DNA of 64,000 nt from an uncultured Alphaproteobacteria bacterium (GCA_963831645.1 CAWHQZ010000028.1:627035-691034); one strand, 5' to 3'; shown: positions 19,683 through 53,427, counted from the stretch's first letter. A program made the numbers and translations. The notes: a model not told the origin generated them from the sequence alone.

Positions 19683-20018
19683 ATGAAGAAGCCCTTTGGG
19701 GCCGCGGGAGCGGCTTTTTCTGTTGTGCTGGGTGCAGCGTTGTTATGCCCCGTCGAGCCGGCCACACCCGCCGCAAGGCCGGCTCTGCCGCAAACGTGCG
19801 GCGAGCATGAGCAGATCGCTCGCCTGCTCTCCGGCAGCTACGGCGAATACCTGGTGGCGAGCGGGCGATTGCTGGCGGGCGTTGTCGAGCTGTGGGTCAG
19901 CGACGCGCAGACATGGACGCTGCTTCGCATTCTACCGGGCGGTATTGCCTGCCTCGTCATGGCCGGTCGCGATATCCGCTTCAGCAGGCCTCGTACAGGA
20001 AAGGAGCGTGAGGCATGA
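19683..20018 (+). CDS. hypothetical secreted protein (signal peptide)
   Basis: MKKPFGAAGAAFSVVLGAALLCPVEPA... 111 aa, located at the left edge of the phage-derived block. Confidence 0.4.
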   Translation: MKKPFGAAGAAFSVVLGAALLCPVEPATPAARPALPQTCGEHEQIARLLSGSYGEYLVASGRLLAGVVELWVSDAQTWTLLRILPGGIACLVMAGRDIRFSRPRTGKEREA

Positions 20019-20184
20019 AAACGAATCAAGACACCGCAATGGACTACGTGTTCGAGGCCGAAGGCGGTTATGCCGAGCGCGACAGCGAACCCGGCGGCGC
20101 GGGGTGAATATGGGAATTTCGTTCCGCGCTTTCGAGGACTGCTGGGACGATATGGGCGGGGATAAAAACGTCTCACTCGCCTGA
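20015..20184 (+). pseudogene. GH108-family phage lysozyme remnant (N-terminal about 55 aa only, with a frame break)
   Basis: MKTNQDTAMDYVFEAEGGYAERDSEPGG then TNMGISFRAFEDCW in the +2 frame, then a stop. GH108 endolysins are about 170-250 aa. Confidence 0.5.
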
Positions 20185-20247
20185 TTTCGCATCTGACGCG
20201 GCCCGAGCGTAATCGCGACACAACCCGTAAAAGATGGAGAGTGACAA

Positions 20248-20421
20248 TGTTGCAAGGTTACAAGACGTATGTCGTGGCGCTGATGGTATTGGCGATCGCC
20301 CTCATCGAAGGGGTTGCGGGAATCGACATCCCCGGTGCCGAGGTTAAAGGCGACTGGTTCACTTATATCCTGGCTGCACTCGGCCTGGGCGCCCTGCGTT
20401 CCGCAGTGCCCGCGAGATGAC
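20248..20421 (+). CDS. holin-like small membrane protein (57 aa, two predicted TM helices)
   Basis: MLQGYKTYVVALMVLAIALIEGVAGIDIPGAEVKGDWFTYILAALGLGALRSAVPAR. It lies directly after the lysozyme remnant. Below the ORF-track size cutoff, found by reading the sequence. Confidence 0.4.
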
Positions 20422-20488
20422 TCTCCACTGAATGCTTGCAGAGGAGTGGAGAGCCTCGCACGGGGCCTCCTTGCCAAGGAGAGGCGGA

Positions 20489-20731
20489 ATGGATCGATCA
20501 AAGGATACGGCAGTGCGATTTGACGTTACCAGCGTTGCTCGCTCCCACGCGCCCTCTGCGCTGGCGGAACTTGCGCGCCTTTGTTTACAGGCTAAGTCGG
20601 AAACGGCGCGCATCGCTGCGATCAAGGAAGTTCTGGCGCTCGCGTGCGGTAAAGGCAAAGAGGCGGCGGACGAAGTAGAGCCGCTGGTGGTGCGCTTTAC
20701 CGATGACTGGGCTAGACCTCCCACTGCCTAA
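20489..20731 (+). CDS. hypothetical phage protein (candidate small terminase subunit by position)
   Basis: MDRSKDTAVRFDVTSV... 80 aa with RBS AAGGAGAGG. It sits immediately upstream of the terminase large subunit. No diagnostic motif. Confidence 0.35.
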   Translation: MDRSKDTAVRFDVTSVARSHAPSALAELARLCLQAKSETARIAAIKEVLALACGKGKEAADEVEPLVVRFTDDWARPPTA

Positions 20732-22078
20732 CAACTGGCGAGGGCGGCTGTACCAAATTCCGCTCTGGCGATTTCTGCGTACGGGCGGCAAGCGCGCAAT
20801 TGCCGTTTGGCACCGCCGCGCCGGCAAGGACGAGGTAGCACTGCACTGGGCAGCAATGGCGTCGAATTCAGAAGCGTGCCAACTATTGGCACATGCTGCC
20901 GGAGTATGCCCAAGCGCGAAAAGCGATCTGGAACGCAGTTAATCCCCATTCGGGCAAACGCCGGATCGACGAGGCGTTTCCTGCGAGGATGCGTGTTTCA
21001 ACGAACGAGCAGGAGATGTTGATCAGGCTGCAAGGCGGTTCTACGTGGCAGGTCGTAGGCTCAGACAGCTACAACAGCTTGATCGGCACGGCGCCTTACG
21101 GTGTCGTCATGTCGGAGTGGGCAACAGCCGACCCCGCAGCTTGGGCGTACCTGGCTCCGATACTTGCCGAAAACGATGGCTGGGCGCTGTTCATCACTAC
21201 GCCGCGTGGACGCAACCATGCTCTTAAAATGTACGAAATGGCGAAAGGCGAACCGGGCTGGTTTGCTCGAGATCTCGACTTATCGCGATACTGGCGTGCT
21301 CACCGATTTGGAGGTCGAGGTGCAGCGACGTGAATATCGTTCTCTTTTCGGTGAAGGCTTTGGCGATGCCCTGATCGAGCAGGAATACCTCTGCTCGTTC
21401 GATTCAGCCATGCTCGGTGCTTACTGGGCTCGTGAGCTGGCTCAACTCGAGCGGTCGGGCAGAGTGCGCGAACTGGCAGCCGATGCAAATTTGCCGGTCC
21501 ATACGGCTTGGGATCTGGGCATCGGTGATTCGACTGCAATCTTTTGGTGGCAGGCTGTCGGTGCCGAAATCCATGTCCTCGATCATCACGAAACCCATGG
21601 GGAGGGCCTCGAGCATTACGCTAATCTGGTTCTTGCAAAGCCATGGCGACGCGGCAGCGACTATGTTCCCCAGGACGCGAGGGCGAGAGAACTCGGTACC
21701 GGGCGAACACGTATCGAGACGATGTTGGCGCTGGGTCTGAGGCCGCGGCTCGTTCCCGACCACAAGCTCATGGACGGCATCAACGCGGCGCGACTTACCA
21801 TCTCTAGGTGTTTCTTCGATACCTTCAGGTGCAAGACGGCGCTCGACCTTCTTCGACAGTATCGCGCTGAGTACGACGAGAAGGCGCGAGTGTTCAAAGA
21901 TAACCCCAAGCACGACTTTACGAGCCACACCGCCGACGCCTTCCGCTACCTTGCCATGGCATGGAGGGAGATGGCCGCCGTGCCGCAGTCAAAGCCCGAG
22001 GGCCGCACCATCCACGAGATGACACTGAACGAACTTTTCGATGCCGAGCGCAAAGTCAGACACTCCATACGCATCTGA
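20703..22078 (+). CDS. terL: phage terminase large subunit; two frame breaks (about 20900 and about 21290)
   Basis: ATPase segment RLYQIPLWRFLRTGGKRAIAVWHRRAGKDEVAL (frame 3); middle WALFITTPRGRNHALKMYEMAKGE (frame 1); nuclease domain HTAWDLGIGDSTAIFWWQ...HDFTSHTADAFRYLAM (frame 2). Confidence 0.8.
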
Positions 22079-24120
22079 GCCAGACGATAAAACGCCCGGC
22101 CAGAGAGCTTGCGCGAAATGGCTTAGGGAGATCGCGCGCGCGGAAAAACACCGCGAGGAGTGGTTGCGACGCTCTGAAAAGCTGCTCAAGCTCTACCGCA
22201 GGCAGCGCGGCCAGTCCGACACGGTGCGCCGGTTTGCGATGCTGTGGGCCAACACCGAAGTCCTCAAACCCTCGATCTATGCGAGGCCGCCGGTGCCACA
22301 GGTGTCGCGCCGCTTCAAGGATCGTGACCCGGCCGGCCGGCTCGCCGCGGAAATCCTTGAGCGCAACGCGGCCTATGAGCTGGAACGCATGAACATCGAC
22401 GTGGTTCTACGCAATTGCCGCGACGACCTGTTGCTCCCGGGCCGCGGCACCGCGTGGGTGAGGTATGAAGCTGAAACCGATGCGACCGGCGTCGCAGCCG
22501 AGCGCGTTCAGGTCGACTACGTGCACTGGAAGTGTTTTCTGCATTCGCCCGCACGCACGTGGGACGAGGTGACGTGGGTCGCCAGAGAGGGCTACTTCTC
22601 CAGTGACGAGCTTGATGCGCGCTTCAATATCAAGGCGCGCCGGCTCTTGGTTTCGCTCGACCACAGCGAGATGAAATCCGACGGCAGCAACGAGACCGAT
22701 CTCCAAAAGGGCATCGAGGCAAAAGCCACGGTCTACGAGAATCTGGTGCAAGAAGCCCCGGCGGGTCTTCTTCATCGCCAAGGGCTGCGACGAACCGCTC
22801 GAGGAATCCGAACCGTTTCTTGACCTAACCGAGTTTTGGCCCTGCCCCAAGCCGCTGTTCTCGAACCTGACCACCGGCACGCTCATCCCGGTGCCGGACT
22901 ATGCCTACTACATGGACCAAGCGGAGGAGATCGACGATCTTACAGCCAGGATCGGCAAGCTCACCGATTGCCTGAAGCTCGTTGGCTTCTATGCGGCAGG
23001 CGACAGGAACGCCGCGGCGATCGAAAAGGCGCTGGAGCCCGGCGTCGAGAACAGGGTGATCCCGGTTGATAGCTGGGCAGTGTTCTCGGAGAAGGGGGCG
23101 GGCGGCGGACTCGCCTGGCTGCCGGTGAAGGACGTCGCCGTGGTGCTCAAGGAGTGCGTGACGCTCAGAAACCAATTGATTGCGGATGTTTATCAAATCA
23201 CCGGCCTGTCGGACATCCAGCGCGGAGCCACCGACCCGAACGAAACGGCGGCTGCGCAAGAGCTGAAGTCCCAGTTCGGCAGTCTGCGCATCCGCGAACG
23301 TCAGAAGGAGATGGCCCGCTTCGCCCGCGACATCGTGCGCATGGCCTGCGAGATCATGGCCGAGCGCTTTGAGCCCATCCGTCTCGTCGAAACCGCCAAC
23401 CTTATGCCCGAGGCGCCCGAGAAAATAGCCGAGACGATTGCCGCGGTGGAACTGTTGCGGAATCAGCGCCTCAGGTCGTTCCGCATCGACATCGAGACTG
23501 ATTCCACGATCGAACCCGACGAGAATGCCGAGAAACAGAGGCGAACCGAGTTCGTCACTGCGGTCGGAACGCTCTTCCAGCAGGCCGTACCGGTAGTGCA
23601 GCAGGTGCCGGAGATGGCCCCGCTCATCGGCGAAATGCTGATCTTCACGGTGCGGGGGTTTAGGGCCGGGCGGATGCTGGAAGACCAGATCGAGCGCACC
23701 ATGCAGGCCGTCCAGCAACGCGTCGCACAAGCGGTGGCGAATCCGGGGAGCGACCCGGAGGCGGCCAAGGTCGAGACTGAAAAAGCCAAGCTTGCCATGG
23801 AACAGGAGCGCCATGGCGTTGAGATTGGGGCAAGGCAGGCCGAGATCGCCCACGCCCAGGCAATGGCGGGTTTCGATGAAGGCATGAAGCAGCGCGAAAT
23901 AAGCAAACTCGAGGCTGAGCAGGAGATGAAGGCCGAGGAAATCGCATTGATCGTCAACCCGCTGATCGAGTCCATGAAGCAGTTGGGCGAGATGGTGGCG
24001 CAAGCCCAGCAAGCGCAACTGCAGGTCAGCGAGCAGCTCATCGCTGCAATCACGGCCCCGCGCTCCGTGACTACGCCCGAAGGCAGAACGTATACATCGG
24101 AAGTGGGGCGGCTGAACTAA
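22041..24120 (+). CDS. phage portal protein; frame break near 22745
   Basis: The two ORFs (22041-22823 and 22891-24120) join as KATVYE|IWCKKPRRVFFIAKGCDEPLEESEPFL if one A is removed from GAGAATCTGG. Large acidic/coiled C-terminal region typical of portals. Start codon uncertain. Confidence 0.7.
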
Positions 24121-25134
24121 TGACCATTTCTCTCAAGCACGCCTTCACCAGCGCGGTCGCAGACGGCGGCGATGCAAATCTGGTGCAGCCGTCCAACTGG
24201 AACGCCGAGCATACTCTAACCCTCGCGGCAGATCGGGTGCTTGGGCGGTTGAGCTCGCCTGGAGCAGCAGAGGAGCTGACGGGCGTGCAAATCCTTACTC
24301 TTGCCGGAGGCGCCGCTTCATCGCACACCCATGTTGAGGGGGATATCACTCTTGGCAATACACAGAGAATCGTAGGGCGTAATTCAGGCGGTGGTGGCGC
24401 GGCGGAGGAAGTTACCGCCACACAAGCTCTTGATTGGATCGGCTCGACGCAAGGCGAGCTTCTGTACCGTAGCGGTTCCGCGTGGTCGGCGCTGGCTGTG
24501 GGCACCAGCGGACAGTCGCTGCGAACGGCCGGTGCAAGCGCAAATCCGGCATGGGCGGACATCTACGGAATGCCCCAAGCCCCTTATTGGGGCGATCGGA
24601 CCAGTTTCTGGGTCCTCCATATGTGTCGCAGGGTACGTCGCAGGCGCTGACCGCGAGCGTCCTCTACATGATGCCGATCGTCGTGCCTGAGCGCCGAACG
24701 TTCACGACGATCAAATTCTATATCAACACGCTGCAGGGCACGTCCGGCGTTCGTGTTGGATTGTGGAGCGCGGTTCAGGCGACACGCCAGCCGAATGCAT
24801 TGCTGCAAGAGGCGACTGGCTCGCCGGTAGACACATCGACCGGCACGGGATCGACCGGCGGAAAGACGGTGACGATCAGCCAGGCGCTGGACCCCGGCCT
24901 GTATTTCATCGGCCTGCTGACGGACGGAACGCCCACCGTAAACGGTTTGGTCCACGTCTGCTGCTGCCTTCGGTTTTCTCGGCCTCGATGGAAGCGGTGG
25001 TGCAACTTCGGCACGTCGATCAGAGGCTCCAGCGAACGAGCGTCACTTATCAGGCGCTCTCCAACTATGCCGATGAAAGCGCACAAACCTATGCCGCTAC
25101 CGGTGGCAACTTTCCACTGATGGGGATGCGCTGA
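24120..25134 (+). CDS. phage-associated hypothetical protein; two -1 frame breaks (about 24600 and about 24950)
   Basis: Continuous reading needs frame 3 then 2 then 1 (MTISLKHAFTSAVADGG...; ...PPYVSQGTSQALTASVLYMMPIVVPERRTF...; ...SMEAVVQLRHVDQRLQRTSVTYQALSNYADE). Confidence 0.45.
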
Positions 25135-25177
25135 TGCCGCAGTTCCGTGCGTTAGTGAAGTCGCTGCTGTAGAAAGC

Positions 25178-25647
25178 ATGGCTGCCGCCTTTCAGGTCAG
25201 CGCATTCCAAAACAATGCGTTCCAGATCGACGCTGGCTTGTCGAGACAAGTGTTTCCAGAGGTGGTTTCGATCTTCGTGAGATCGACAAGTACAAGCGCA
25301 TCGACCGGGCGCGCTCCCAAGCCCGCGAGGCGGCCCGCAAGGCGGCCCGGGAGCTGCGTCAGACACTGGAACACGCCTTTGACGACAACACTGCGACTGC
25401 CGAAGTAACGGTGGCGATCGAGCCGGAAATCCGGCGCAGCATCGCGGCTGCCCAGGCCGAGTTGGCCAACGTACTTCAACTCGAGCCACTCGGCTCGGAT
25501 ATCGGAAAACTTCGGTACGGACTGATGCAGCTTATCGCGGCGGAATACTTCAGCCGGTCAAGTATCACGCAAGCCGCAAAACAGGCGGAATTGATCCATG
25601 CCGCGCTTCTCGATGAAGAAGCAGCGATCGTGACCCTGTTGATCTGA
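25178..25647 (+). CDS. phage-associated hypothetical protein; frame break near 25255
   Basis: MAAAFQVSAFQNNAFQIDAGL... joins ...GGFDLREIDKYKRIDRARSQAREAARKAARELRQ...EAAIVTLLI. Confidence 0.4.
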
Positions 25648-25660
25648 GGAGAAGACCAGA

Positions 25661-25978
25661 GTGTCGAGACTAGCCACCTATGAATATGGCAGCAGCTACG
25701 AGACCGTTGCCGCGTCGCAGACGGCGCAAATATTGGGCGGGACGGGTGCCAAGGGCGACTATCTGGCGCGCATCATCTGCGTCGTCGCGACCGCCGCGAC
25801 GGCTGCCACGTCGATCAAGGACGGCTCGGACTTTGCGATCAGCATCCTGCCGAACTCGCCGGGCAGCGGCGTTGGGACCTACGTCATCGAAGTGGGCCTG
25901 TTCAGCAAGACCGGTGCTTGGCAGATCACGACGGGCGCAGGCGTCTCAGTCATCGCTTGTGGGACGTTCTCGGCATGA
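25661..25978 (+). CDS. phage-associated hypothetical protein
   Basis: 105-aa ORF. Its stop overlaps the next start (ATGA). Confidence 0.4.
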   Translation: MSRLATYEYGSSYETVAASQTAQILGGTGAKGDYLARIICVVATAATAATSIKDGSDFAISILPNSPGSGVGTYVIEVGLFSKTGAWQITTGAGVSVIACGTFSA

Positions 25979-26301
25979 CGAAGGAGACGGAATGGTGCGA
26001 CCCGGAGACGGGCGAGGTGCACGTATTCGAGACTACGGACGATTGCATCGCGTTCTTCCGCAAGCGCGCCGCTGGCTATGAGACACGACGAGCGCCAGCA
26101 ATCCGACCCGACACGATTGAGATGTGGTCGCCTGTGACGGGCAAGGTCGTCACATCGAAGTCCCGCCACTACAAGGAAGTCCGCCGGGCCGGCTGCGAGA
26201 TCAACCCGGAAGCGGGCATCCGTGAAACCAACCGCCCTGAGTTCAAATCCCCCGGCCTCGCCGACGACATCAGGCGGGCCATTCAACTAACCCAGAGGTA
26301 A
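25975..26301 (+). CDS. phage-associated hypothetical protein
   Basis: MTKETEWCDPETGEVHVFETTDDCIAFFRKRAAGYE... 108 aa. Confidence 0.4.
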   Translation: MTKETEWCDPETGEVHVFETTDDCIAFFRKRAAGYETRRAPAIRPDTIEMWSPVTGKVVTSKSRHYKEVRRAGCEINPEAGIRETNRPEFKSPGLADDIRRAIQLTQR

Positions 26302-26304
26302 TCC

Positions 26305-27364
26305 ATGACCGATCAAGTTTTGAACGGCGCTGCCGCGCCGGCGGAAGACCTGCGCTCTACCATCGAAGCTGCATTTGCGGACGACGCGACGGCTGAGTTA
26401 CCGACCACGCCAGCCGAACAAGCCGCGACCGCAGTAGAGCACCCCGAGTCAACAGAACGCGCCCGCGATGAATCAGGACGGTTCATCAAAGGTGGTGAGC
26501 CTGTGGCAGACAAACCCAATAGCGAAAAACCGGTGGCTCCCCCTCCAGCCGCGGTGGTTGGCCAGCCGGTAGCGGCAGCGCCTCTGGCTTCCGGGCCGCC
26601 GCCGCGGCTGGTCCGTAGCCGGCAAGGCCGCCTTCGATGCCCTTCCGGATGCTGTTAAGGCAGACATTGCCAAGCGCGAGGAAGAAATCTCCAGGGGCTT
26701 CGCCAAGCTCGCCGACTACAAAGGCTTGGATCCGTGGGTGGAGATGGCGCGCAAAAACGGCCGGACCCTACCCGAAGTGGTCGCGGCCTATATCGAAGCC
26801 GAGAATCAGCTTTCGGAAAACTTCGGCGATGGAATCCGTTCGCTGTGCCAGATGTACAACGTCGATCCGGCACAACTCGGTCGGCTTCTCACAGGCGGTA
26901 AGCAACAGGACGATCAAGCGCCGCAAAGCGCGGACGCTTTCGCGCCCGTCCTCAACCGCCTCAATTCGGTGGACCAGCGCCTGCAGAAATGGGAGCGACA
27001 AATGGAGGAGCGTGAAAACGCCGCCGTCCAGTCCGAGCTTCAGCGCTTCGCCGCCGACCCCGCACACAGGTATTTCGAGAATGTTCGGCGGACGATGGGT
27101 CAGATCATCGCTGCCAACCCGGAAGCGTCACTCAACGACGCCTACGACCAGGCCTGCTGGATGAACCCGGAAATCCGTGACCTTCTCATCAGCGAGAAGA
27201 CGAAGGCGGACGCCGAGGAATCCAGGCGCAAGGCGGATCAGGCCCGCCGCGCTTCAGGCAGCCTACCCAACGGTTCGCCGGTGCCGGGAGCAATCTCGGC
27301 CAGCGGACCAGCCCCCACCTTGCGCGCGGAACTCGAACGAGCGTTCGAGGCCGCCCGCATCTAA
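26305..27364 (+). CDS. phage scaffolding-like protein; at least two frame breaks (about 26600 to 26720)
   Basis: Acidic/Ala-Pro-rich N-terminus then helical Q/E/R-rich C-terminus (...QRLQKWERQMEERENAAVQSELQRFAADPAHRYF...). Positioned immediately before the major capsid gene. Confidence 0.45.
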
Positions 27365-27379
27365 CGAAAGGAGTGACCG

Positions 27380-28351
27380 ATGGCTTCCCCCAATCTTTCG
27401 GAAATCATCACCACCACGCTCCGCAACCGCACCGGCAAGCTCGCTGACAACGTCACCGAGAACAACGCCATCCTGTTTCGCTTGAAGCAGAAGGGCAGGA
27501 TCAAGCCGGCGAGCGGCGGGCGGACGATCGTGCAGGAGTTGGAGTACGCCGAAAACGGCACCTTCCTGTGGTACTCGGGCTACGAGACGCTCAACGTGCA
27601 AACGTCGGACGTGTTCACGGCCGCCGAGTTCGACTGGAAGCAGTGCGCGGTTGCGGTGACGATATCGGGCCTGGAGCAGTTGCAGAACGCGGGCGACAAC
27701 CGCGTCATCGACCTGCTCGAAAGCCGTATCGGCAACGCCGAAAAGACGCTGGCCAATAACATCGCAACGGGCATGTATGCCGACGGCACGGGATCGAGCT
27801 CAAAGGAGATCGGCGGGCTTCAGCTGCTGGTCGCCGACAGCCCGTCAACCGGCACCGTGGGCGGCATCAACCGCGCCACGTACACCTTCTGGCGCAACGA
27901 GGCCAAGGACGCGACCACCGACTTCGGCGCGGCCGCCACCTCGGCATTGATGCAAAGCTACATGAACCGGGTCTACCTCGCCATCGCCAGAGGGCGTGAT
28001 CACCCGGACCTCATCGTCGCCGACAACAACTACTACCGCCTCTATCTCGAATCCCTGCAAACCATCCAGCGCGTGACCAACACGGAGCTGGCGTCCGCAG
28101 GCTTCGACAACCTCAAGTACATGGGCGCGGATGTGGTCTACGACGGCGGCATCGGCGGCAACTGCCCCACCAACCACATGTATTTCCTCAACACCGACTA
28201 CATCCATTACCGCCCGCACAGCGAGCGCAACATGGTGCCGATCGGCGGGGAACGCATGAACACCAACCAGGACGCCATCGTGAAGCTGATCGGCTGGGCG
28301 GGGAATATGACCCTGTCCAACGGTTCGCTCCAGGGCGTCTTGAAAGACTGA
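27380..28351 (+). CDS. phage major capsid protein
   Basis: Intact 323-aa ORF with a strong RBS (AAAGGAG) after the scaffold-like gene. Terminase-portal-scaffold-capsid gene order; content is consistent with a capsid protein. Confidence 0.6.
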   Translation: MASPNLSEIITTTLRNRTGKLADNVTENNAILFRLKQKGRIKPASGGRTIVQELEYAENGTFLWYSGYETLNVQTSDVFTAAEFDWKQCAVAVTISGLEQLQNAGDNRVIDLLESRIGNAEKTLANNIATGMYADGTGSSSKEIGGLQLLVADSPSTGTVGGINRATYTFWRNEAKDATTDFGAAATSALMQSYMNRVYLAIARGRDHPDLIVADNNYYRLYLESLQTIQRVTNTELASAGFDNLKYMGADVVYDGGIGGNCPTNHMYFLNTDYIHYRPHSERNMVPIGGERMNTNQDAIVKLIGWAGNMTLSNGSLQGVLKD

Positions 28352-28372
28352 TCGCGGAAAGGAGAAACGCAA

Positions 28373-28863
28373 ATGGCTTTTCGCATCACTGACCATCTCA
28401 TTGGTCCGCAGCCCATCGCCAACACGGAAACGACCCAGAATCATCCCCTGGGCACGATCGTGCGCGCGACTGATCCGACCTATGGGGCGGGCGAGTTCAT
28501 CTACCTGAAGGGCGTGGCGTCCACCGCCATCGGCTCGTGGGTGCTGTACAACCCGGACGACTTCTCCACGACGCTGCTCGCTGCCAACGATATCGGGCCG
28601 GTGGCGGTCGCCATGTCAGCGAACGTGGCGAACCAGTACGGCTGGTATCAGATCCAGGGCAAGGCCGTGGGTCTGGTGCTGTCGGGTTCGTGGACAACGC
28701 GAACGTTTACGCCACCGCAACCGTGGGCAGCGTGGATGACGCCGTTGTGGCGGGTGACCGGGTGAAGAACGCCAAGGGCGCTTCGGCAATCGGCACTCCT
28801 TCCGGCTCTTTCGCCGAGATGGAGATAGAGCGCCCGTGGATGGACGACGCACTGGCGGCGTGA
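28373..28863 (+). CDS. phage structural protein (possible head decoration/cement); frame break near 28690
   Basis: MAFRITDHLIGPQPIAN...GEFIYLKGVAS... continues in another frame as ...VDNANVYATATVGSVDDAVVAGDRVKNAKG.... Followed by a terminator. Confidence 0.4.
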
Positions 28864-28876
28864 GCCACGAAAACTG

Positions 28877-28906
28877 GGCGGGGGCTTCAAGGCTCCCGCC
28901 TTTTCC
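28877..28906 (+). terminator. Rho-independent terminator after the capsid/decoration genes
   Basis: GGCGGGGGC-TTCAA-GGCTCCCGCC hairpin (one mismatch) followed by TTTTCC. Confidence 0.5.
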
Positions 28907-28923
28907 ATTCAGCAGGTGACCGA

Positions 28924-29577
28924 ATGTCCATAACTGATCCTCTCGACTTTTCCGCGTTCGAGCAGCAGGCCCTGCAGGCGCGCCCGCCCGGTCCGATCCT
29001 GCGTTTCTTCATCGAAGCGGTGGAGAACAAGTTCAAGTCCGCGCAGGCCGGTCGGCCTATCTACGACAACGTGGAGATGATTTCGATCATCAATCCGGGT
29101 TCGAAGGACGAGTTTATCAAGAAGGTGGACGCTGCTGCTAAGCAGCGCTTCGGACCGCAATACGAGCACTGGAAGCGAACACAGGAACAACCAGCCGAAG
29201 GTACGCCGCTCGAAATGGTACCGTTCCTCAACCCGGCGCAGGTGAAGGAGCTGAAGGCGCTCAACGTCCCGACGCTCGAGCACCTCGCCAATCTGCATGA
29301 TGGCGCCATCCAGAAAATCGGCTTGGGCGGGCTGGAGCTGGTGCGCAAGGCGCAAGCCTACATCAAGGCCGCCGGCGACAACTCCGTCGTCACGAAGCTG
29401 GCGGCGGAAAACCATCGCCTGAAGGCCGAGATCGAGACGCTGAAAGCCCAGATCGCGCAGGTGAATGCCCGCTACGAAAACGTGCTCGCAGGAGCCGCAC
29501 CCGTTTCCCCGCCAGCCGATCTGGACGCGATGATCGCCGCCGCAATCGACAAACGAATGAAAGGAACCCAAGCATGA
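28924..29577 (+). CDS. phage-associated hypothetical protein
   Basis: 217-aa ORF with a coiled-coil segment (AENHRLKAEIETLKAQIAQVNARYE). Confidence 0.4.
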   Translation: MSITDPLDFSAFEQQALQARPPGPILRFFIEAVENKFKSAQAGRPIYDNVEMISIINPGSKDEFIKKVDAAAKQRFGPQYEHWKRTQEQPAEGTPLEMVPFLNPAQVKELKALNVPTLEHLANLHDGAIQKIGLGGLELVRKAQAYIKAAGDNSVVTKLAAENHRLKAEIETLKAQIAQVNARYENVLAGAAPVSPPADLDAMIAAAIDKRMKGTQA

Positions 29578-29795
29578 CCGAACGCCAGGCAGTTTACACC
29601 ACGGGGCCACGGTTTTTTGTCTCCGAGGACGGCAACCACATCCTGTTTTCCTATCGGATAGACAGCGCCAGTGAGATCGGCCCGCGTGAGGCGACCGACG
29701 CCGACAAGCGAGGCTATCCCAAGGCCTGGGAAGCGTTCGAGGCAAGCCGGCCTGTGACCGTTAAGAAGTCAGAAGGCCGGCGGCCGACCGCATGA
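29574..29795 (+). CDS. phage-associated small hypothetical protein
   Basis: 73 aa with ATGA overlaps at both ends. Confidence 0.35.
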   Translation: MTERQAVYTTGPRFFVSEDGNHILFSYRIDSASEIGPREATDADKRGYPKAWEAFEASRPVTVKKSEGRRPTA

Positions 29796-30517
29796 CGATG
29801 TTGTCGATTTGCCAGGATGCGGCTGTCCATATCGGCATTCCCCAGCCCTCGGCGGTTGCCTCATCGACTGCGACCGACGCCATGCAGCTCAAGCGCCTGC
29901 TCAACGCGGGCGCCAGGCAGCTGATGAAGGATCATCACTGGTCGAAATTGCTGAAGGTCAAGACGTTCACCGGGGTCGCGGCCCAGGCGCAGACCGGCCA
30001 GCCGCCCGCGAACTTCGACCGTTTCGCCCCGGTGACGAAACTTTGGGACGTTAACAAGCGGCTGCCGCTGGCGGGAGCGATCTCCGCGGACAAGTGGTTG
30101 CTACTGCTCGCCCAAAACGTGACGGGAGCGGACAAGTACTGGACGATGATCGACGGGGTGATCAACATTACGCCGACGCCCACTACGTCGGACTCGTTCC
30201 GCTACACCTACGTGTCGCGCTACTTCGCCAGGCCGACCGGCAACAGCGACGAAACCAACGACAAGGCTGCGTTCACCATCGATACCGACGAGAGCCGCCT
30301 GTCAGAAGAATTGCTGACGCTCGACCTGGTATGGCGCTGGAAGAAGGCGAAGCAGCTCGACTATGCCGAGGATTTGGCCGACTTCGAGCGCCAGAAGGAA
30401 ATGGACATCGCCGCCGACCGGACGGCGCAGCCGATCTCTACTGCGCTCCCGTTCGAGGGTCTCACCTCCGGCTACGGGCCTGACGGCTGGTGGCCGGGGA
30501 CCATCACGCAGGTGTAA
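29792..30517 (+). CDS. phage-associated hypothetical protein
   Basis: 241-aa ORF, translationally coupled within the structural gene string. Confidence 0.4.
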   Translation: MTMLSICQDAAVHIGIPQPSAVASSTATDAMQLKRLLNAGARQLMKDHHWSKLLKVKTFTGVAAQAQTGQPPANFDRFAPVTKLWDVNKRLPLAGAISADKWLLLLAQNVTGADKYWTMIDGVINITPTPTTSDSFRYTYVSRYFARPTGNSDETNDKAAFTIDTDESRLSEELLTLDLVWRWKKAKQLDYAEDLADFERQKEMDIAADRTAQPISTALPFEGLTSGYGPDGWWPGTITQV

Positions 30518-30520
30518 TCC

Positions 30521-32103
30521 ATGCGCAAGGCCGTCCGCCCCAATCCTGGCCGCACGCCGCAGGGCCGCACCGTGCAGTTCCCCGCACCGGTCAAGGGCTG
30601 GATGACGCAGGAATCGCCCGTCGATGCGGAGGAGCAGTCGGCCCTCATCCTCGACAACTTCTTTCCCGAGCCGCAGGGGGTACGGGTCAGGCGCGGCTAC
30701 ACCAGCCACGCCACCGGTATGTCGGGCAATGTGGAATCGCTGCTGGTGTTCACGTCTGCCTCGGCCTCGGCGATGTTCGCGGCCAACGGCACTGCGATCT
30801 ACAACGTCACGAGTTCCGGCGCGGTAGGCGCGGCGGCAGTGTCGGGCCTGGCCGACGCCCGCCATCAGCATGTGATGTTCGCCACTTCGGGCGGGCAGTT
30901 CATGGTCATCTGCAACGGCACCGATGGGGTCAGGACCTATGACGGCTTGTCGTGGGTGGACCGCACCGCGTCGATCACCGGCACATCGGGGGCGGTGAGC
31001 ACGTTCATCAACCTCACCGCGCACAAGAAGCGGCTGTGGTTCGTGCCGTCTGCCTCTACCACCTTGTGGTATCTGCCCACGGAATTCGGTAGCGGGCGCT
31101 GCACGTCGTTCCCGCTTGGCGCGCAACTGAAGCGCGGCGGCTACATCATGGCTGTGGGCACCTGGTCGGTGGATGCCGGCGACGGCATGGACGATCTGTT
31201 CGTCGCCATCTCCTCGGAAGGAGAGATCGTCATCTACGCCGGGACCGATCCCGCTTCCGCGACGACGTGGGAGCTGGTCGGGGTCTACCGGGTGGGCAAG
31301 CCGATCGGCCGGCGCTGTCTGTTCCAGGTGGGCGCCGACCTCGCCATCCTCACCGAGGACGGGGTGATCCCGCTGTCGGTCGTGTTCCGCGGCGATGCCG
31401 ACCGCGCCGTCGCAAACAACAAGGCGCTCTCGCGCAACATCCGCGAGGCCTGGGCGGAGGCGGTACAGCGGGTCGCATCGTCGTTCGGCTGGGAGATGGT
31501 GGCCTATCCGCGCCGCAACATGGCGCTGGTCAACGTGCCGGCCGGCGGCGGCGAGCTGGTCTGGCAGTTCGCGTTCAACACCATCACCGGGGCATGGTCG
31601 CGGTTCCGGTCCCAGGAAGCCAACTGCTGGGCCTGTTCGACGACAATCTCTATTTCGGCGGCACCGACGGCAAGGTGTTCCAGGCGGACTTCGGCGCGTC
31701 CGACAACACGGCGTCGATCATCGCCACCATGCTGCCCGCCTATATGCACTTAGGCGCCAGGGGCCGGCTGAAGCACGTGAAGGGCTGCCGGCCGATCTTC
31801 TTCACCGACGTTCCGAACGTGGCGCCGGAAATCGCCATCGGGGTGGATTATGAGTATCCTACCGAGACCGACGAGGCGCAGGACGTCAGCACCGGGTTTT
31901 TCACCTGGGATTCCTCGCTCTGGGACGGGCCGGACGTCTGGTACGGCTATGTCGTGCAGCGCGCCTGGCGCGGCAACGGCAACATCGGCACGGTCGTCAG
32001 TCCGTACACGTACATCAACATCGACGAGACGGCGGCGGGCAGCGAGTTTCGATTTGTCATGACCGGCTACGACGTGCTGTTCGAAATGGGCGGCGTGGTA
32101 TGA
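30521..32103 (+). CDS. phage structural protein, about 527 aa (tail/injection candidate); -1 frame break near 31620
   Basis: ORFs 30521-31753 and 31267-32103 join around ...RFRSQEA|LLGLFDDNLYFGGTDGKVFQADFG.... No family assigned. Confidence 0.45.
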
Positions 32104-32517
32104 GGATCGTCCGCGATTTCGGCGCCGCGCAGGCAGCGCTGCGGCTTGCCGAGGACGAGTTGCAGAACTCGGTTCGTGCCACCGTTCGCTGTACTGGCCA
32201 TCGAGGACAGGTTCGGACACTTGCGCGGCGCGGCGGTGCTCAACGACTTCTGTGATTGCAACATCGAGCTTACCTGCGTCGGCAAGGGTGCCTTCAGTCG
32301 TGATGTGTGCAGGGAATTGGCGCAGGTGGCGTTCAACGTAAACGGCTGCGAGCGAATAACCATTCGCACCCGCAAAGGCAATGTGAAGTTGGTGGCGATG
32401 GCGCTTCGGTGGGGGTGGATGGTCGAAGGCGTGCTGCGCCGCTGGTATGAGGACGACGACGCGGTTGTGATGGGGATGGTTCGAGAAGATTGCCGTTTTC
32501 TGCCGAAGGTGAACTGA
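32100..32517 (+). CDS. GNAT-like acetyltransferase-fold protein; frame break near 32170
   Basis: The ATG at 32100 overlaps the previous stop. The C-terminal part ...VAFNVNGCERITIRTRKGNVKLVAMALRWGWMVEGVLRRW... is GNAT-like. Confidence 0.4.
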
Positions 32518-32544
32518 TATGCACTGGCAACGAGGACAATTCGC

Positions 32545-33675
32545 ATGAAAGCTCCAAAGCAGCCATCTGTAGGTGGGACTGCGCAGGCCCAGGGTGCAGC
32601 CAACCGGGACGCCGCTATTTCGCAGCAGCTTCTGAACATGACCAACCAAGTGACGCCGTACGGCGACCTGACCTATGCACAGTCGGGAACTGGAACACAA
32701 CGGATGGAAGTCCTCGACAGCCAGGGTCGTCCCACCGGCAAATTCCAGACGATCAAGACGCCGACATTTACTGCAACCACGACGCTGAGCCCAGCACAAC
32801 AGGCCCTCCTTGATCAGGAACAGCAGTTCGACAAGCGCTTCAACGAGATCGCGCTCGATCAGACCGGCCGCATTGGCTCGCATCTTGCGCAGCCTTTCAC
32901 GCTCGACAATAACGCTATCGAGGGTCGCATCGGGGAATTGGCACGGGCACGCCTCGATCCGCTGTGGGAACAGCGCGAAGGCCAGTTCGAGCAAAAGATG
33001 GCGAACCAGGGCATATCGCCTGGCTCCCAGGCCTACATGGACGCCCGTCGGTCTTTCGATGTCGGCAGGAACAATTCCTATAACTCGCTGCTGCGCGATG
33101 CCCGCGGCCAGGCGATGAGCGAACTGCTCACAGCGCGCAACCAGCCCATAAATGAGATCACTGCGCTCATGGGCGGTGCGCAGGTGCAGCGGCCCCAGTT
33201 CGCAAGCACTCCGCAAACGGGAGTGGCCGGAGTCGACGTCGCGGGCCTGACTGGGAACAACTTTGCCAACCGCGCAGCAAGCCATCGGGCGATGCTTGGT
33301 GGTCTTTCGGAACTGGGCGCGGCTGCGCTGGGCGGCTGGGCGCTGTCCGACCGCCGCGTGAAGAAAGATGTCAAGAACATAGGCCGCCTTAATGACGGAA
33401 CGGGGCTCTACTCCTTTCGCTACCGTGACGGCGCGGGCGACGGGAGCACCAAGGTCGGCGTCATGGCCCAGGAAATCGAGGATAGGCATCCCTACGCGGT
33501 GGCCAAAACCAATCGAGGTATCAAGGCCGTGAACTATTCGGCGCTTGCCGAAGCGTTGCGGAAAGGCTCATCGCAGATAGAGCAACCCCGGCACTGGACC
33601 CAAGCTGCGGCGCGTCTTGCGCAAGCGCTCGTCACTGGCCTTCAGCGAAGCAAACAGTCTGCCTACGGATTATAG
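32545..33675 (+). CDS. tail-fiber-type protein with C-terminal S74 intramolecular-chaperone (autoproteolytic) domain
   Basis: C-terminus SDRRVKKDVKNIGRLNDGTGLYSFRYRDGAGDGSTKVGVMAQEIEDRHPYAV...GIKAVNYSAL matches the peptidase S74 chaperone domain. Confidence 0.65.
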   Translation: MKAPKQPSVGGTAQAQGAANRDAAISQQLLNMTNQVTPYGDLTYAQSGTGTQRMEVLDSQGRPTGKFQTIKTPTFTATTTLSPAQQALLDQEQQFDKRFNEIALDQTGRIGSHLAQPFTLDNNAIEGRIGELARARLDPLWEQREGQFEQKMANQGISPGSQAYMDARRSFDVGRNNSYNSLLRDARGQAMSELLTARNQPINEITALMGGAQVQRPQFASTPQTGVAGVDVAGLTGNNFANRAASHRAMLGGLSELGAAALGGWALSDRRVKKDVKNIGRLNDGTGLYSFRYRDGAGDGSTKVGVMAQEIEDRHPYAVAKTNRGIKAVNYSALAEALRKGSSQIEQPRHWTQAAARLAQALVTGLQRSKQSAYGL

Positions 33676-33721
33676 CTCGACAGTTATATGAGAACGGTTT
33701 TTCCTTAAGGAGATTCTGCGT

Positions 33722-35062
33722 ATGCCCCGCAACGGATCCGGTGTCTATTCGCTGGTGACCACGCCTTTTGCCACCGCCGGCGCGATAGCCGTTGCCTCGA
33801 CGGTCAACGCGAACATCAATGATATCGGTGCCGAAATCACCGGCTCCCTGCCGCGCAACGGTTCGGCGGCCATGACTGCAGCACTGGCCATGGGCTCGAA
33901 CAAGATCACGGGGTTGGCCTCCGGGACGGCGGCGACCGACGCGCCGACGCTTGCACAGGCGCAAAGCTCCATCGTATCGCAGGCCGCCGCCGTCGGCGGC
34001 ACCGTCGATGCCATCACGCTGACGTTTTCGCCGGTCTACACGGCCTACACGTCGGGAATGCGCATCCGGTGGGTATCCGGCGGCGCCAACACAGTCACCA
34101 ACCCTACCGTCAATGTTGACAGCCTGGGAAGCAAGACGGTCAAAAAAGGGGCCGGTTCTGCCCTGGTGGCGGGCGACACAGGAGCATCCGGATACATCTG
34201 CGTGGCGGTGTATAACGGCACAGACTTCGTTCTGCTCAATCCTGCGGTAGTAACGGTATCCGGCATCGCGGTTTCGGCGACAACGCTGGCCGCGTCCGAA
34301 ACCTTGGCACTAACAGGCGACATCACGCCCTCGCAGATTACCGCCGACCAGGACAACTATGCGCCCGCAGGCCACGCGACTGCGGCGGTGCTGAGGCTCA
34401 GCACGGACGCGCTGAGGTATCTAACCGGATTGCAGGGGGGATCGGACGGCCGCGTGGTGGCGATCCACAATGTTGGATCACAGGTGCTCGGTCTCAAACA
34501 CGATACGACCTCCACAGCCGCGAACAGGTTCTATACCCCCGGCGGAATCGACATGTTCTTGGCCGCCAACGCTTCCTGTCTACTGCAGTACGACGCCACT
34601 GCTTCACGGTGGCTCGTGGCAGCCCAGTCTATCGGCTATGCAAATCAGACCGTCATGGAGGCGGCGTCGGCGACGGCGTCCTATGTGAACCCGGCGAACC
34701 AGCACCACCACCCTGGGCACCCGAAGTGCTGGGCCATGGTTACTGTTTCCGGTGGCACTCCGACGCTCCAGACGAGCTACAACATCACCAGCATCACCGA
34801 TACGGCGACCGGTCGTCTCACCGTGACGATTGCGACGGATTTTTCGACTGCAAACTGGGCCTGTCTGGTTACCGTTGAACGGACCTCAACGACCATATCG
34901 TCAACCGAGATGCGTCGAGCGGCGATACGAAGCTCCACATTGGCGGTGGGCTCTGTACAGCTCGAATGCGCGGATGAAGCGACTGACTCGGCTGGCGGCG
35001 GCAATAATCCGGCACTGTCAGACCCGGCTTCGTGGCACATGGTCGGCTTCGGAGATCAGTGA
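33722..35062 (+). CDS. phage tail fiber protein
   Basis: 446 aa. N-terminus MPRNGSGVYSLVTTPFATAGAIAVASTVNANINDIGAEITGSL is a tail-fiber N-terminal motif; Gly/Thr/Ala-rich beta-rich body. Confidence 0.6.
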   Translation: MPRNGSGVYSLVTTPFATAGAIAVASTVNANINDIGAEITGSLPRNGSAAMTAALAMGSNKITGLASGTAATDAPTLAQAQSSIVSQAAAVGGTVDAITLTFSPVYTAYTSGMRIRWVSGGANTVTNPTVNVDSLGSKTVKKGAGSALVAGDTGASGYICVAVYNGTDFVLLNPAVVTVSGIAVSATTLAASETLALTGDITPSQITADQDNYAPAGHATAAVLRLSTDALRYLTGLQGGSDGRVVAIHNVGSQVLGLKHDTTSTAANRFYTPGGIDMFLAANASCLLQYDATASRWLVAAQSIGYANQTVMEAASATASYVNPANQHHHPGHPKCWAMVTVSGGTPTLQTSYNITSITDTATGRLTVTIATDFSTANWACLVTVERTSTTISSTEMRRAAIRSSTLAVGSVQLECADEATDSAGGGNNPALSDPASWHMVGFGDQ

Positions 35063-35511
35063 TGAAATACTACGCGCTTTCCCGCCACGACGGCGGCGTC
35101 GAGATTATGCAGGTTACGGAGGGCGATGCCGCCACCTCGATCGCCAGGTGGCCGGCGGAGCGCCAGGCGGAGATCGCGCGAATCCGAAATCTCACCGATG
35201 CCGAGTTTGCAGCCATCGGCAGCATGGACCGCGCCTTCCGCGACGCGTGGCGCGATGCCGGCGGTGTCATCGACCATGACATGGACAAGGCGCGGCTAAT
35301 CCACATGTCCCGCATACGGAAAGCCCGCGACAGCAGACTTGCAGCACTTGACACGGCATGGATGCGAGCGACGGGGCAAGGGCAGGCCGCGGAAAGCCGC
35401 CGCGATAGAAGCCGAAAGGCAGAAGCTGCAGACACCTTCCGCACACGCTCGACCTCAACGCCGCCGCCACACCGGATCAGCTCAAAGCCTTGTGGCCTGA
35501 CGAACTGAAAT
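35062..35511 (+). CDS. phage-associated hypothetical protein; frame breaks near the 3' end
   Basis: MKYYALSRHDGGVEIMQVTEGDA.... A plausible C-terminus ...LDLNAAATPDQLKALWPDELK is in another frame. Start overlaps the tail-fiber stop (TGATG). Confidence 0.4.
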
Positions 35512-35647
35512 AACCGAGTGAGCCTGCATCGAGGGCGTGCTGGCGCTCGACTTTCTCGATAATGTCACACCCATGCTGGAAGGATATCTCCGACATGATG
35601 ACCGTACGTAAGCTTCGAGGCTTTTCCCCGCGCCTGCGCACTGTGGC

Positions 35648-38059
35648 GTGATTCTCGCGCGCTCCGGTAAGGCCCTTTTCGCCGTCGTGCTGCTGGTGCT
35701 TCTCGCGGCCTGCAGCTCACCGGAACAGCGCGCCCAGTCGCACTACGAGCGCGGCCTCGAGCTTCTCGAGGAGAAGAACCTCGCCAAGGCCGAGATCGAG
35801 TTCAAGAACGCCGTGCAGCTCAACAACAACCTCGCCGGCGCCTGGTTCGGCCTCGCCGAAATCGCCGAGCAGCGCCAGGACTTCCCGGCCTTCGCTGCGC
35901 TGCTGCAGAAGGTCGTCGAGCTCGACGCCAAACATGCCGACGCCCGCCTGCGCCTGGCGCGCCTCTCTCTGCTGCGCGGCGAGTTCGACAAGGCGCTGCA
36001 GCTCGTCAACGCCGCCGACGCGTTGCGGCCGGGCGACGGCGACATCCTGACCACCCGGGCGGCGACCTTGCTCAAGCTCGGTGACCGGCAGGGCGCCTTG
36101 GCCGACGCCGAGCGGGCGCTCGGCCTCGATGCCGCCGATGCCGAGGCCCTGGCGTGATCGCGGCCGATAAGTCTCGGCAGCGGCGACACCAGGGGCGCGC
36201 TCGAAGCCCTCGACCTCGGGCTCGCCAAGGACCCGTTCGACCTCGGGCTGCTGCTGTTCAAGATGAAGATCTTCGAGCAGCAGCAAAACCAAGCGGGCGT
36301 CGAAGGGATCATGCGCACCATCGTTACGGCGCATCCGAAGGAGAAGGGCTTCCGCCGGGCGCTCGCCTCCTACTACGTCCGCACCGGCCGCAAGGACGAG
36401 GCCGAACGGGAGATGCGGGCGCTGGCCGACGCATCGCCCGACGACGCAAATGCCGGGCTTGAACTCGCCGAGTTCCTGCGCGCCATCAAGGGCACGGACG
36501 CGGCCCGCCAGGAACTGGTCCGCCGGATGGAGAGTGGCGGCGAACTGCGCCGGCCGTTATCGTCTGGCACTCGCCCGCCTCGAATTCGCCGACGGCAAGT
36601 TCGATGCGGCGACAGAAATTCTGGACGGCATCATCGGCAAGGGCGAGCCGGCCGGAGACGTCAGGGATGCCAAGCTGCTCAAAGCGCAGATGCTGCTCCA
36701 GCGCAAGGACGCCGCGGGCGCCAGCCGGCTCGTAAGCGAGGTGCTGGCGGACGATGCCAAGAACATCGAGGCGCTCCATCTGCGCGCCGCCATGCGCATC
36801 GAGGAAGGCAAGCTCGACGAGGCGATCGCCGACGCGCGCCAGGTGCTCAACGAGAAACCCGATGCGGTCGCAACGCTCGAGCTGCTGGCGCTGGCGCTGG
36901 AGCGCAGCGGCTCCATCGAGCTCGCCGAGGAACGTCTTTCGGACGCGATGAAGGCCTCCAACATGCAGCCGGCGCTGGTGTTGAAGTATGCCGACTTCCT
37001 GCACCGCCGCGGCGCCTTCGACCGGGCCGACGATCTCCTGACGCGGGCCACGGCCCAGCGCCCCAACGAGACCAGCCTCCTGAGGGCGCTGGCGGCGGTG
37101 CGGCTCCGGCGACAGGACTGGGAAGGAGCGCAGGAGATCGCCGAGGCGCTGAAAAAGCTCGGCGACAAATCCGGCGTGGCCGACCAGATCCTCGGCTCCG
37201 CCCTCGCTGGGCAGAGCAAATTCGACGACAGCATCCGCAGGTTCGAGGCGGCCTACCAGGAGACCCCCGCTGCGGTCAGGCCGATGTATTCGCTGGTCAT
37301 GGCCTATCTGCGCGCCAAGAAGGTCGCGGAAGCCGAGGCGTTTCTCAATTCCGTGCTGAAGGCCAATCCCGCCAATGCCGAAGCGCTGGTGCTCCTGGGC
37401 ACCGTCCAGGCCTCGCGGAATGCCGCCGGATGAGGCCGTCGCGAGCTTTCAGAAGGCGATCGCCAGCCAGCCCAAGAACCCGAGCGGCTATCTGGCGCTG
37501 GCCCGGTTTCATCTGAGTCGAGCGCAACCTCGAGGCGGCCGAGAAGGAGCTTCGCGCCGGGCTTGCCCAGGTCCCGGGAAACTTCGGGATACGCCTGACG
37601 CTCGCCGGCATCCTCGAGCAGAAGAACGACATCGATGGGGCGATCGGCGAATACGAGGCGCTGCTCGAGGATTACCCCGACGCGCTGGTCGTCGTGAACA
37701 ACCTCGCCAGCCTGCTCTCCGATCATCGCGCCGACAAGGAAAGCCTGGAGCGCGCCCACCAGCTGGCGCTGCGGCTGAAGGACGGCCAGGCGCCGCATTT
37801 CCGGGACACGACGGGCTGGATCAGCTATCTCAGGGGCGACTACCGCCAGGCGCTGTCACAACTCGAGCAGGCGGTGGAGCAGCTGCCCTCGGTGGCGCTG
37901 GTGCGCTATCATCTGGGCCTGACCCACGCGGCGCTGGGGCAGAAGGCCGAGGCGCAGGAGCAGCTGCTGAAGGCGATCGAGCTCGCACCGGAAGGGGAGT
38001 TGCGCCGCAAGGCGCAGGAGGCGCTCGACAAGGCGAAGACAGCCGCGGCGCAGCCATAA
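35648..38059 (+). CDS. prsT: PEP-CTERM-system-type TPR-repeat lipoprotein (PrsT-like); at least four frame breaks
   Basis: GTG start and lipobox LLAACS. Successive TPR-rich ORFs in alternating frames (35648-36157, 36263-, 36450-37433, 37694-38059) assemble into one roughly 800-aa TPR protein. Confidence 0.6.
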
Positions 38060-39138: not shown

Positions 39139-39214
<76 letters not shown>

Positions 39215-39267
39215 TCATTTCCACCCGCGTCCCGTCGGGCGAGAAGGCTGCGGAATTGACCCGCCTC

Positions 39268-39783: not shown

Positions 39784-39796
39784 GCTCGAGCCTCCC

Positions 39797-40161: not shown

Positions 40162-40163
40162 GA

Positions 40164-41300: not shown

Positions 41301-41568
41301 CGTGCAGGAACGTGCCGGCGATTGCGGTGACCGACCAGGAGAATTATCAAATCAAATCAGAGGCTTCGATGCTTGAGTACCCAATCGGTTGACTGCGAGA
41401 CACGCCATGCCTCCCGAATGGTGCATCGACGCACCGGTTGAGCCGGCAATCTGCACGATGCCGCACAACGGCTCGAGGGACAGCTCGGCAACTGTTCTCT
41501 ACAAGCCGAATTCACATTTAAAGGACTTCTTGGGCCCGCGGCAAAACAAATGAAAGGGAGATCATCCG

Positions 41569-43404: not shown

Positions 43405-43436
43405 CACCGGTTCCAGGCAGCAGACCATGAATGAAC

Positions 43437-45918: not shown

Positions 45919-46004
45919 GCCAACCATCTTTTCCAGGCCGGGAAGCGCGTGCTTCGCTCGGAACATCGTTTGTGAATGCGTCTTCCCCGGTTCCGAAGCC
46001 GCAC

Positions 46005-53426: not shown

Positions 53427-53427
53427 C

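Follow-up and report, generated by a model that had tools for sequence, protein, structure and literature searches.

A podophage late module between manC and prsT in an uncultured alphaproteobacterium, probably a defective prophage remnant

We analysed a 64,000-nucleotide stretch of DNA (hereafter the window) from an uncultured Alphaproteobacteria bacterium (GCA_963831645.1, CAWHQZ010000028.1:627035-691034), in which positions 19683-35513 form a co-oriented phage late module of 15.8 kb, with all credible coding signal on the plus strand. We hold with good confidence that this block is a defective prophage remnant. A preliminary description of the same DNA had wavered between a gene transfer agent (GTA)-like element and a decayed prophage. 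Its phage block exists and lies where it was placed, except that the end is at 35513, 2 bases beyond the 35511 given there; of its two readings, the decayed prophage is supported by collinearity with podophages of 39-53 kb and by three independent deletions. A temperate podophage of the Mx8/ppS10JBj-1 type, about 40-50 kb in size, would once have lain between manC and prsT. Deletions would then have taken away its whole early half (integrase, immunity, recombination and replication), most of its GH108 endolysin and, leaving a scar, the two internal-virion/ejection genes that normally separate the S74-type protein from the tail fibre. What is left today would be inert cargo, i.e., a cryptic prophage.

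Collinearity with temperate podophages and absence of early genes

The gene order from terL to the fibre is collinear with that of temperate podophages of 39-53 kb, namely ppS10JBj-1, BUCT555 and Mx8/Mx9. ppS10JBj-1 (OP596615, also written ppBjS10J-1) is a temperate, spontaneously produced podophage with a 44.6-kb prophage, a 65-nm capsid and an 18-nm tail (PMC10127595). Its genes stand in the same order as those of the block: terL, portal, scaffold, capsid, open reading frames (ORFs) of 194, 234 and 526 aa, a GNAT gene, a 282-aa S74-type ORF and the fibre. Identities range from 28 to 67%, with 62% for the capsid, and the fibre is shared at its N-terminus. The bacterium that carries this phage and the nearest named relatives of the window's host fall into one order-level group. 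The block lacks much that the phage has: ERF, YqaJ and NinB recombination genes, HTH regulators, a methylase, a lysis cassette and, after the S74-type protein and before the fibre, two large ORFs of 417 and 481 aa. BUCT555 of Stenotrophomonas (39 kb) has the same core order, including the GNAT gene, the S74-type protein, the ejection proteins and the fibre, whereas its annotated integrase, DNA polymerase I and helicase have no counterpart in the block, from which its transglycosylase-bearing internal virion protein (585 aa) is also missing. The Myxococcus phages Mx8 and Mx9, with genomes of 50-53 kb, have the capsid family in common with the block.

The closest relative overall is a 41.9-kb metagenomic contig (L184) whose capsid is 89% identical. 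Outside the capsid its identities range from 29 to 66% (64% and 50% for the two pieces of the 527-aa protein, 47-50% for the portal, 43-52% for the scaffold and 37-56% for terL), and it encodes a Toprim/DnaB-type helicase 2.5 kb upstream of the terminase genes. Like ppS10JBj-1 and BUCT555, L184 shows that the block is collinear with bona fide phage genes, with which the PHROGs assignments agree. A complete Mx8/ppS10JBj-1-like prophage would measure about 40-50 kb and include early, lysogeny and lysis modules; the block measures 15.8 kb and is without the early genes.

No ORF of the block carries an integrase, repressor, recombinase or replication domain in Pfam. When all 73 proteins of ppS10JBj-1 were used as tblastn queries, its early and lysogeny proteins matched nowhere in the 64-kb window. 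The absence of integration, immunity and replication genes stated in the preliminary description is thereby confirmed, for the block by Pfam and for the whole window with respect to the early genes of ppS10JBj-1.

The nearest capsids in a large protein collection are 89-92% identical and lie on contigs of 27-47 kb. A search of 185,579 species genomes (one per species) turned up no orthologous block, the best capsid match there being 68%. The best 80 capsid matches are scattered over Alpha-, Beta- and Gammaproteobacteria, Myxococcota and Acidobacteriota, many of them on contigs of 35-45 kb. In IMG/VR the capsid is matched at 85% at best and the remainder is mosaic, and a megablast search of the block against phage genomes gave no match. 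Because the capsid family is scattered across phyla, is often carried on phage-sized contigs and has so distant a best species match, this distribution is, as judged from sequence comparison, that of a horizontally moving temperate phage lineage rather than of a vertically kept domesticated element.

Two observations on the wider family can be added. Metagenome-assembled genomes (MAGs) of gut or rumen Alphaproteobacteria make up about half of the species representatives in which this capsid family occurs (loci L022-L073, e.g., L058, L064, L066, L032, L065 and L069). Their structural modules share 64-74% nucleotide identity over 13-15 kb across species, and represent either one widespread prophage lineage or something which that clade retained. 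The contig with the closest capsid (P0121, 27 kb, JGI sample 3300056388; 92% identity) has a host-like DUF2214 gene and a response regulator gene about 0.5 kb from the small ORF that precedes a terL-sized ORF, and about 0.8 kb from the latter. This suggests that the packaging end can be a prophage end in this lineage, in which case a single deletion from the fibre end could remove all early genes.

Deleted ejection genes and truncated lysin

In the relatives, the S74-type protein is followed by two large ORFs, which we call ORF B (220-980 aa) and ORF C (310-850 aa). This arrangement is present in 31 of the 31 related loci with at least 3.5 kb of sequence downstream, although four of them showed a single long ORF only, and also in ppS10JBj-1 and BUCT555. 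The signatures found in B and C are lytic transglycosylase, "internal virion protein with endolysin domain", "released from the phage upon host infection" and "DNA ejection protein". In the seven relatives with a matching fibre N-terminus (five loci and two phages), the fibre comes after B and C. In the window, by contrast, the ATG of the fibre gene (33722) lies 46 nt past the stop of the S74 ORF (33675), and homologues of ORF B and ORF C have no match anywhere in the window.

We further noticed that the S74 ORF ends in approximately 30 codons (about 33590-33675) left over from the N-terminus of ORF B. This tail, HWTQAAARLAQALVTGLQ, aligns with a motif at the start of the B protein, e.g., SWSQGLARLAQTLAG in locus L095, and the scar segment …ALAEALRKGSSQIEQPRHWTQAAARLAQALVTGLQRSKQ… in the S74 ORF is matched by …SWSQGLARLAQTLAGVYKGNQ… (L095) and …KLAETLMGQGIDTSPVESPWQAVGRIGEAAIGGY… (L184) of ORF B. 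The alignment falls in the same frame and at the same place in eight independent relatives, with tblastn E values of 3e-4 to 1e-2 in a small search space. We read this junction as a deletion scar, at which the S74 gene would have been fused to a stub of B with the loss of the remaining B and all of C.

The S74-domain gene itself (32545-33675) encodes a virion/ejection-class protein (PF13884 Peptidase_S74; phrog_6121 and phrog_4287), and the next gene (33722-35062) encodes the tail fibre (phrog_11355 and phrog_25848). The N-terminus of the fibre is 41-47% identical to the fibre N-termini of ppS10JBj-1 (456 aa) and BUCT555 (860 aa), and no relative above 54%, and that over partial length, was found in the metagenome collection. 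The preliminary description had taken both genes for tail fibers, which holds for the second; the first is the S74-type protein fused to the remnant of the following gene.

The left end of the block bears a truncated lysis region. The leftmost phage-derived gene (19683-20018) encodes a 111-aa secreted phage-type protein (phrog_25396, E 2e-8), an identity that the preliminary description did not give. It has no relative in IMG/VR. It is translationally coupled to the lysin remnant, the stop of the one gene and the start of the other overlapping in ATGA. The GH108 remnant (20015-20184) runs in two frames and comprises the N-terminal approximately 45% of the catalytic domain. The earlier call of a truncated GH108 proved correct once the two frames were stitched: the resulting 56 aa match positions 1-38 of the 85 in PF05838 (E 3e-4, 21.6 bits), and the remainder of the catalytic domain and any cell-wall-binding domain are absent. 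Its tblastn matches are weak and are solely to phage GH108/DUF847 genes. About 60 nt after the lysin remnant begins a holin-like 57-aa ORF (20247-20420), so named for its two hydrophobic segments and its position, with no match to a hidden Markov model.

Functions for an autonomous cycle are thus missing from the block, as is typical of a cryptic prophage: the early domains are absent, GH108 is truncated, the ejection pair is deleted, and there are no att repeats, in that neither flanking direct repeats nor a tRNA-Phe fragment were found at the block edges. Since it has no integrase and no att repeats, the remnant would be unable to excise. It should also be unable to replicate, or to lyse the cell by itself. 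Podophage internal proteins, such as gp14-16 of T7 and gp7, gp16 and gp20 of P22, are needed to cross the cell envelope. Because the ejection genes are lost, and by analogy with these proteins, particles made from the block alone should not deliver DNA; at most, DNA-filled heads with fibres would be formed.

Virion genes, host flanks and frame disruptions

The gene inventory of the preliminary description is essentially right as judged by tblastn to OP596615, PHROGs and Pfam, and terL, portal, scaffold, major capsid, the 527-aa protein and the GNAT gene are all confirmed by homology in this way. Pfam on raw ORFs recognised Peptidase_S74 only, and PHROGs, tblastn and stitched sequences were needed for the other genes. 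The corrections concern gene structure, with terL, portal, scaffold, the decoration gene, the 527-aa gene, the chaperone and GH108 each split between frames, and the number of fibres, since a third fibre-like gene lies at 24120-25120.

Packaging genes follow the holin-like ORF. The candidate small terminase (20432-20731) is present as an ORF, and phrog_2538 (E 0.003) and 29% identity to the ORF that immediately precedes terL in L184 point weakly to this identity. The large terminase gene terL (20703-22078) is read in three frames, with shifts near 20868 and 21250; residues 3-457 of the ppS10JBj-1 protein are covered in these frames (tblastn E 1e-123), and the stitched protein matches phrog_2. 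The portal gene (22041-24120) was recognised by tblastn and, after stitching, by phrog_12082 (E 2e-185). Its frame shift lies near 22740, where GAGAATCTGG stands in place of the E-I-W of the relatives. The fibre-like gene between portal and scaffold (24120-25120) occupies at least two frames. It has an N-terminal "…VQPSNWNAEH…" motif, and its weak matches to tail-fibre PHROGs (phrog_25864 and phrog_14726) lie in the C-terminal part. In the relatives, the interval between portal and scaffold holds variable cargo of 1.3 to 6.9 kb. Small ORFs with no assigned function occupy 25178-26301, the last of which (25918-26301) is kept just upstream of the scaffold gene in relatives (tblastn).

The scaffold protein (26305-27364, frame shift near 26648) owes its functional assignment to its position; both of its pieces match an ORF in the portal-capsid interval of L184 (43% and 52%), and the C-terminal piece is 37% identical to the 361-aa ORF of ppS10JBj-1. 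The major capsid gene (27380-28351) is intact and encodes 323 aa (phrog_9953, E 9e-121). In addition to the 62% identity to ppS10JBj-1, it shares 48-52% with Mx8/Mx9 and BUCT555. Downstream lies a decoration-type virion structural gene (28373-28863) with a frame shift near 28680, both pieces of which match a single gene of locus L074, and the stitched protein matches phrog_29386 (E 6e-40). The terminator reported after the capsid genes is present as an intrinsic-terminator-like hairpin at 28876-28901, with an 11-bp stem of which 8 pairs are GC, followed by a T run.

The genes downstream of the hairpin belong to the tail and to other parts of the virion module. A conserved 217-aa protein (28924-29577; phrog_20268, E 8e-28) is 37% identical to the 194-aa ORF of ppS10JBj-1, and the small 73-aa ORF after it (29574-29795) is conserved, with tblastn matches at the same position in 27 relatives. 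The next gene (29792-30517) encodes a tail/adaptor-type protein (phrog_6013 "tail protein", E 4e-51). The adaptor likeness comes from the P0121 contig, in which the ORF between the capsid genes and an ORF of about 525 aa carries PF24175 SU10_adaptor, the correspondence being one of position only. The conserved 527-aa protein (30521-32103; phrog_5107, E 2e-120) has a frame shift near 31624, aligns with the 526-aa ORF of ppS10JBj-1 in two frames (tblastn E 2e-79) and is found in 43 of the 45 long genome loci. The label "amidase / lysis" of phrog_5107 looks doubtful, because this protein has no Pfam domain and stands among tail/adaptor genes in every relative. A GNAT-type acetyltransferase gene (32146-32517; phrog_4470, E 3e-17), 40% identical to that of ppS10JBj-1, is a family-wide passenger. 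The rightmost phage gene (35062-35513) encodes a tail-assembly chaperone in three frames, with shifts near 35390 and 35430; the stitched protein matches PF16778 Phage_tail_APC (E 4e-6) and phrog_20196.

Host genes lie on both sides of the block in the chromosome, as expected of a cryptic prophage, and are those named in the preliminary description. On the left are EpsU/EpsE-like glycosyltransferases of an exopolysaccharide (EPS) locus, PMM and manC, and on the right PrsT, the XrtA/PEP-CTERM-associated ATPase (TIGR03015) and then tRNA-Phe (39139-39214), the sole match in an Rfam scan. The start codon of manC is at 19410, with the first phage ORF 272 nt away, and on the other side prsT begins 134 nt beyond the chaperone stop at 35513. 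Judged from these flanks, it is plausible that the block splits one EPS/PEP-CTERM locus. manC (17958-19410, minus strand) encodes a mannose-1-phosphate guanylyltransferase / mannose-6-phosphate isomerase and has a frame shift near 18602: its Pfam NTP_transferase and MannoseP_isomer domains occupy two different frames, and the intact 481-aa ManC of relative L082 aligns in frames -2 and -3 (tblastn). prsT (35648-38059, plus strand) encodes the XrtA/PEP-CTERM lipoprotein with tetratricopeptide repeats (TPR), in fragments of at least three frames that match positions 8-162, 162-407 and 808-896 of TIGR02917. The fragments scanned span only 8-407 and 808-896 of this model, so part of the TPR array may be lost or may lie in unscanned frames; there is an in-frame TGA at 36155-36157.

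The host is distant from sequenced genomes, with 79% as the highest identity of its PMM to any other database entry. No empty site was definable: in the nearest relatives by PMM whose contigs could be used (71% identity), manC-PMM is retained but has other neighbouring genes. Beyond tRNA-Phe, a stretch of lower G+C (39139-57000, in a window of about 63% G+C with strong third-position G+C bias) encodes an N6 DNA methylase, SPFH, DUF3857/transglutaminase, an adenylate-cyclase/solute-binding fusion and VWA proteins, and an excisionase-like HTH_17 protein at 53428-53946. This stretch was considered as the missing half of the phage and rejected, for its genes include no phage early genes. It could be a tRNA genomic island; no integrase was found among the ORFs scanned.

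The frame disruptions deserve separate treatment. Within the 15.8 kb of the block, at least nine are supported by homology, in GH108, terL (two), the portal, the scaffold, the decoration gene, the 527-aa gene and the chaperone (two), and the fibre-like gene at 24120-25120 probably has one further shift. Over about 2,900 aligned codons, the block is free of in-frame stops. The host genes contain at least five shifts in the approximately 10.5 kb that was checked by homology (CHAD, PMM, manC and, twice or more, PrsT); the breaks in PMM and manC are evident against intact relatives. Host genes are split at 9085-10633, 16424-19410, 35648-38059, 40164-41267 and elsewhere, probably including the N6 DNA methylase, and a reference-free frame model indicates more same-strand frame switches across the window. 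The rate is thus about 0.5 per kb in both phage and host genes.

Because host genes are broken at a similar rate and in-frame stops are lacking, the shifts say nothing specific about the block, and we rejected them as evidence of decay. They are most likely indel-type assembly errors, or else a genome-wide feature. The source is a single 691-kb MAG contig, and the pattern suggests an indel-prone long-read MAG assembly over biological pseudogenes. Should the shifts stem from assembly, the structural genes that remain may in fact be intact, which would fit an evolutionarily young remnant. Frame shifts in long-read metagenome assemblies mimic decay unless host genes are checked, which calls for caution in naming pseudogenes.

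Alternative readings and known systems

Several points weigh against a defective prophage. The conserved structural genes are full length if single-base shifts are discounted, with no in-frame stops in the codons aligned. Intact survivors fit a young remnant, yet they also fit retention by selection. Both ends of the block fall neatly on gene boundaries beside host promoters, and there is no close host relative from which an empty site or the age of the insertion could be read. Genes for lysis and delivery could also be located elsewhere in the genome, by analogy with the five loci of RcGTA (PMC5026251).

One alternative is a helper-dependent cassette, in which a related intact prophage elsewhere in the genome would complement the ejection proteins, the lysin and a late activator in trans, with mixed particles or particles of alternative host range as the outcome. 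The packaging, head and fibre genes do appear intact, including a fibre and chaperone distinct from those of metagenome relatives (54% at best, over partial length), and related prophages are common in Hyphomicrobiales and other Alphaproteobacteria; against this, no second prophage is visible in the 64-kb window and we found no evidence for a late promoter or an activator site. We regard this purely speculative proposal as very improbable.

Mis-assembly of a complete prophage or of a free phage, which would account for the truncations or for the placement of the phage genes, is given just as little credence. It draws on the single contig and on frame disruptions at about 0.5 per kb throughout the window, in host and phage genes alike. 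However, with host DNA on both sides and tight junctions that respect gene boundaries, two chimeric joins would be needed, the collapse of 3-4 kb and of about 25 kb of unique sequence is atypical of long-read error, and the in-frame fusion of S74 to B looks biological. A phage satellite, i.e., a phage-inducible chromosomal island (PICI) or a capsid-forming PICI, does not resemble the block, the content of which is reversed, with structural genes present and integrase and replication genes absent.

Least probable of all, and only barely credible, is a GTA-like domesticated particle, in which the host would keep a podovirus-type head-and-fibre module to package and export host DNA. The same slight chance applies to a variant of this idea, in which lysis, regulation and delivery would come from other loci or from competence genes of the recipient, and the loss of the ejection genes would be part of domestication. 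The block has structural genes only and no integration or replication genes, which agrees with a GTA in a trivial sense; its conserved genes are full length apart from single-base shifts of the kind seen in host genes, and nonsense codons are lacking. The dispersal of RcGTA genes over five loci also speaks for it. These points are outweighed by the lack of an orthologous block in the 185,579 species genomes, IMG/VR and the protein collection, and by capsid relatives of 89-92% on contigs of 27-47 kb, one of them with a replicative helicase. Deletion of a family-universal ejection pair with a scar, together with truncation of the adjacent lysin, is a hallmark of decay and not of maintenance. As for release and delivery, the window holds a truncated lysin and no ejection proteins.

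The preliminary suggestion of a GTA-like element accordingly finds no support: orthologous blocks elsewhere are lacking, the closest relatives are phage-sized with replication genes, and delivery and lysis genes are missing from the window. Conservation by vertical inheritance was not seen, a test of limited power given how far the host stands from sequenced genomes (its PMM shares no more than 79% identity with any database sequence). To our knowledge, no podovirus-type GTA has been described, and if the GTA reading were true, this would be the first short-tailed one. It is worth noting that the presence of structural genes only is insufficient for calling a GTA; here it was the gene order, compared with that of complete relatives, which exposed the missing genes and the scar.

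RcGTA is nonetheless the known system that invites comparison. Its head-tail cluster of about 15 kb lies in an alphaproteobacterial chromosome without integration or replication genes, and it is siphovirus-like, has a conserved gene set of its own and occurs widely, in conserved form, throughout an order (PMC5026251). Like it, the block is a structural cluster of about 15 kb that lacks genes for integration and replication and whose accessory functions may be elsewhere. Unlike RcGTA, the block is podovirus-type, has no orthologue in other genomes, bears deletion scars and is closest to phage-sized contigs. The preliminary description was right that the layout is unlike that of RcGTA: it is a podophage-type layout in common with ppS10JBj-1, and Pfam and PHROGs gave no matches to the RcGTA set, including prohead protease, HK97-type capsid and tape measure, the RcGTA proteins themselves not being directly compared.

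A defective prophage, which we prefer, has more ordinary counterparts; few features of bacterial chromosomes are commoner than prophage remnants. DLP12, Rac, Qin and e14 of E. coli K-12 are cryptic prophages that have been reduced by deletion, lack excision, replication or lysis functions and often keep a run of late genes. The block is likewise a deletion-reduced chromosomal remnant, whereas those elements are lambdoid, of an unrelated phage lineage and in a different host.

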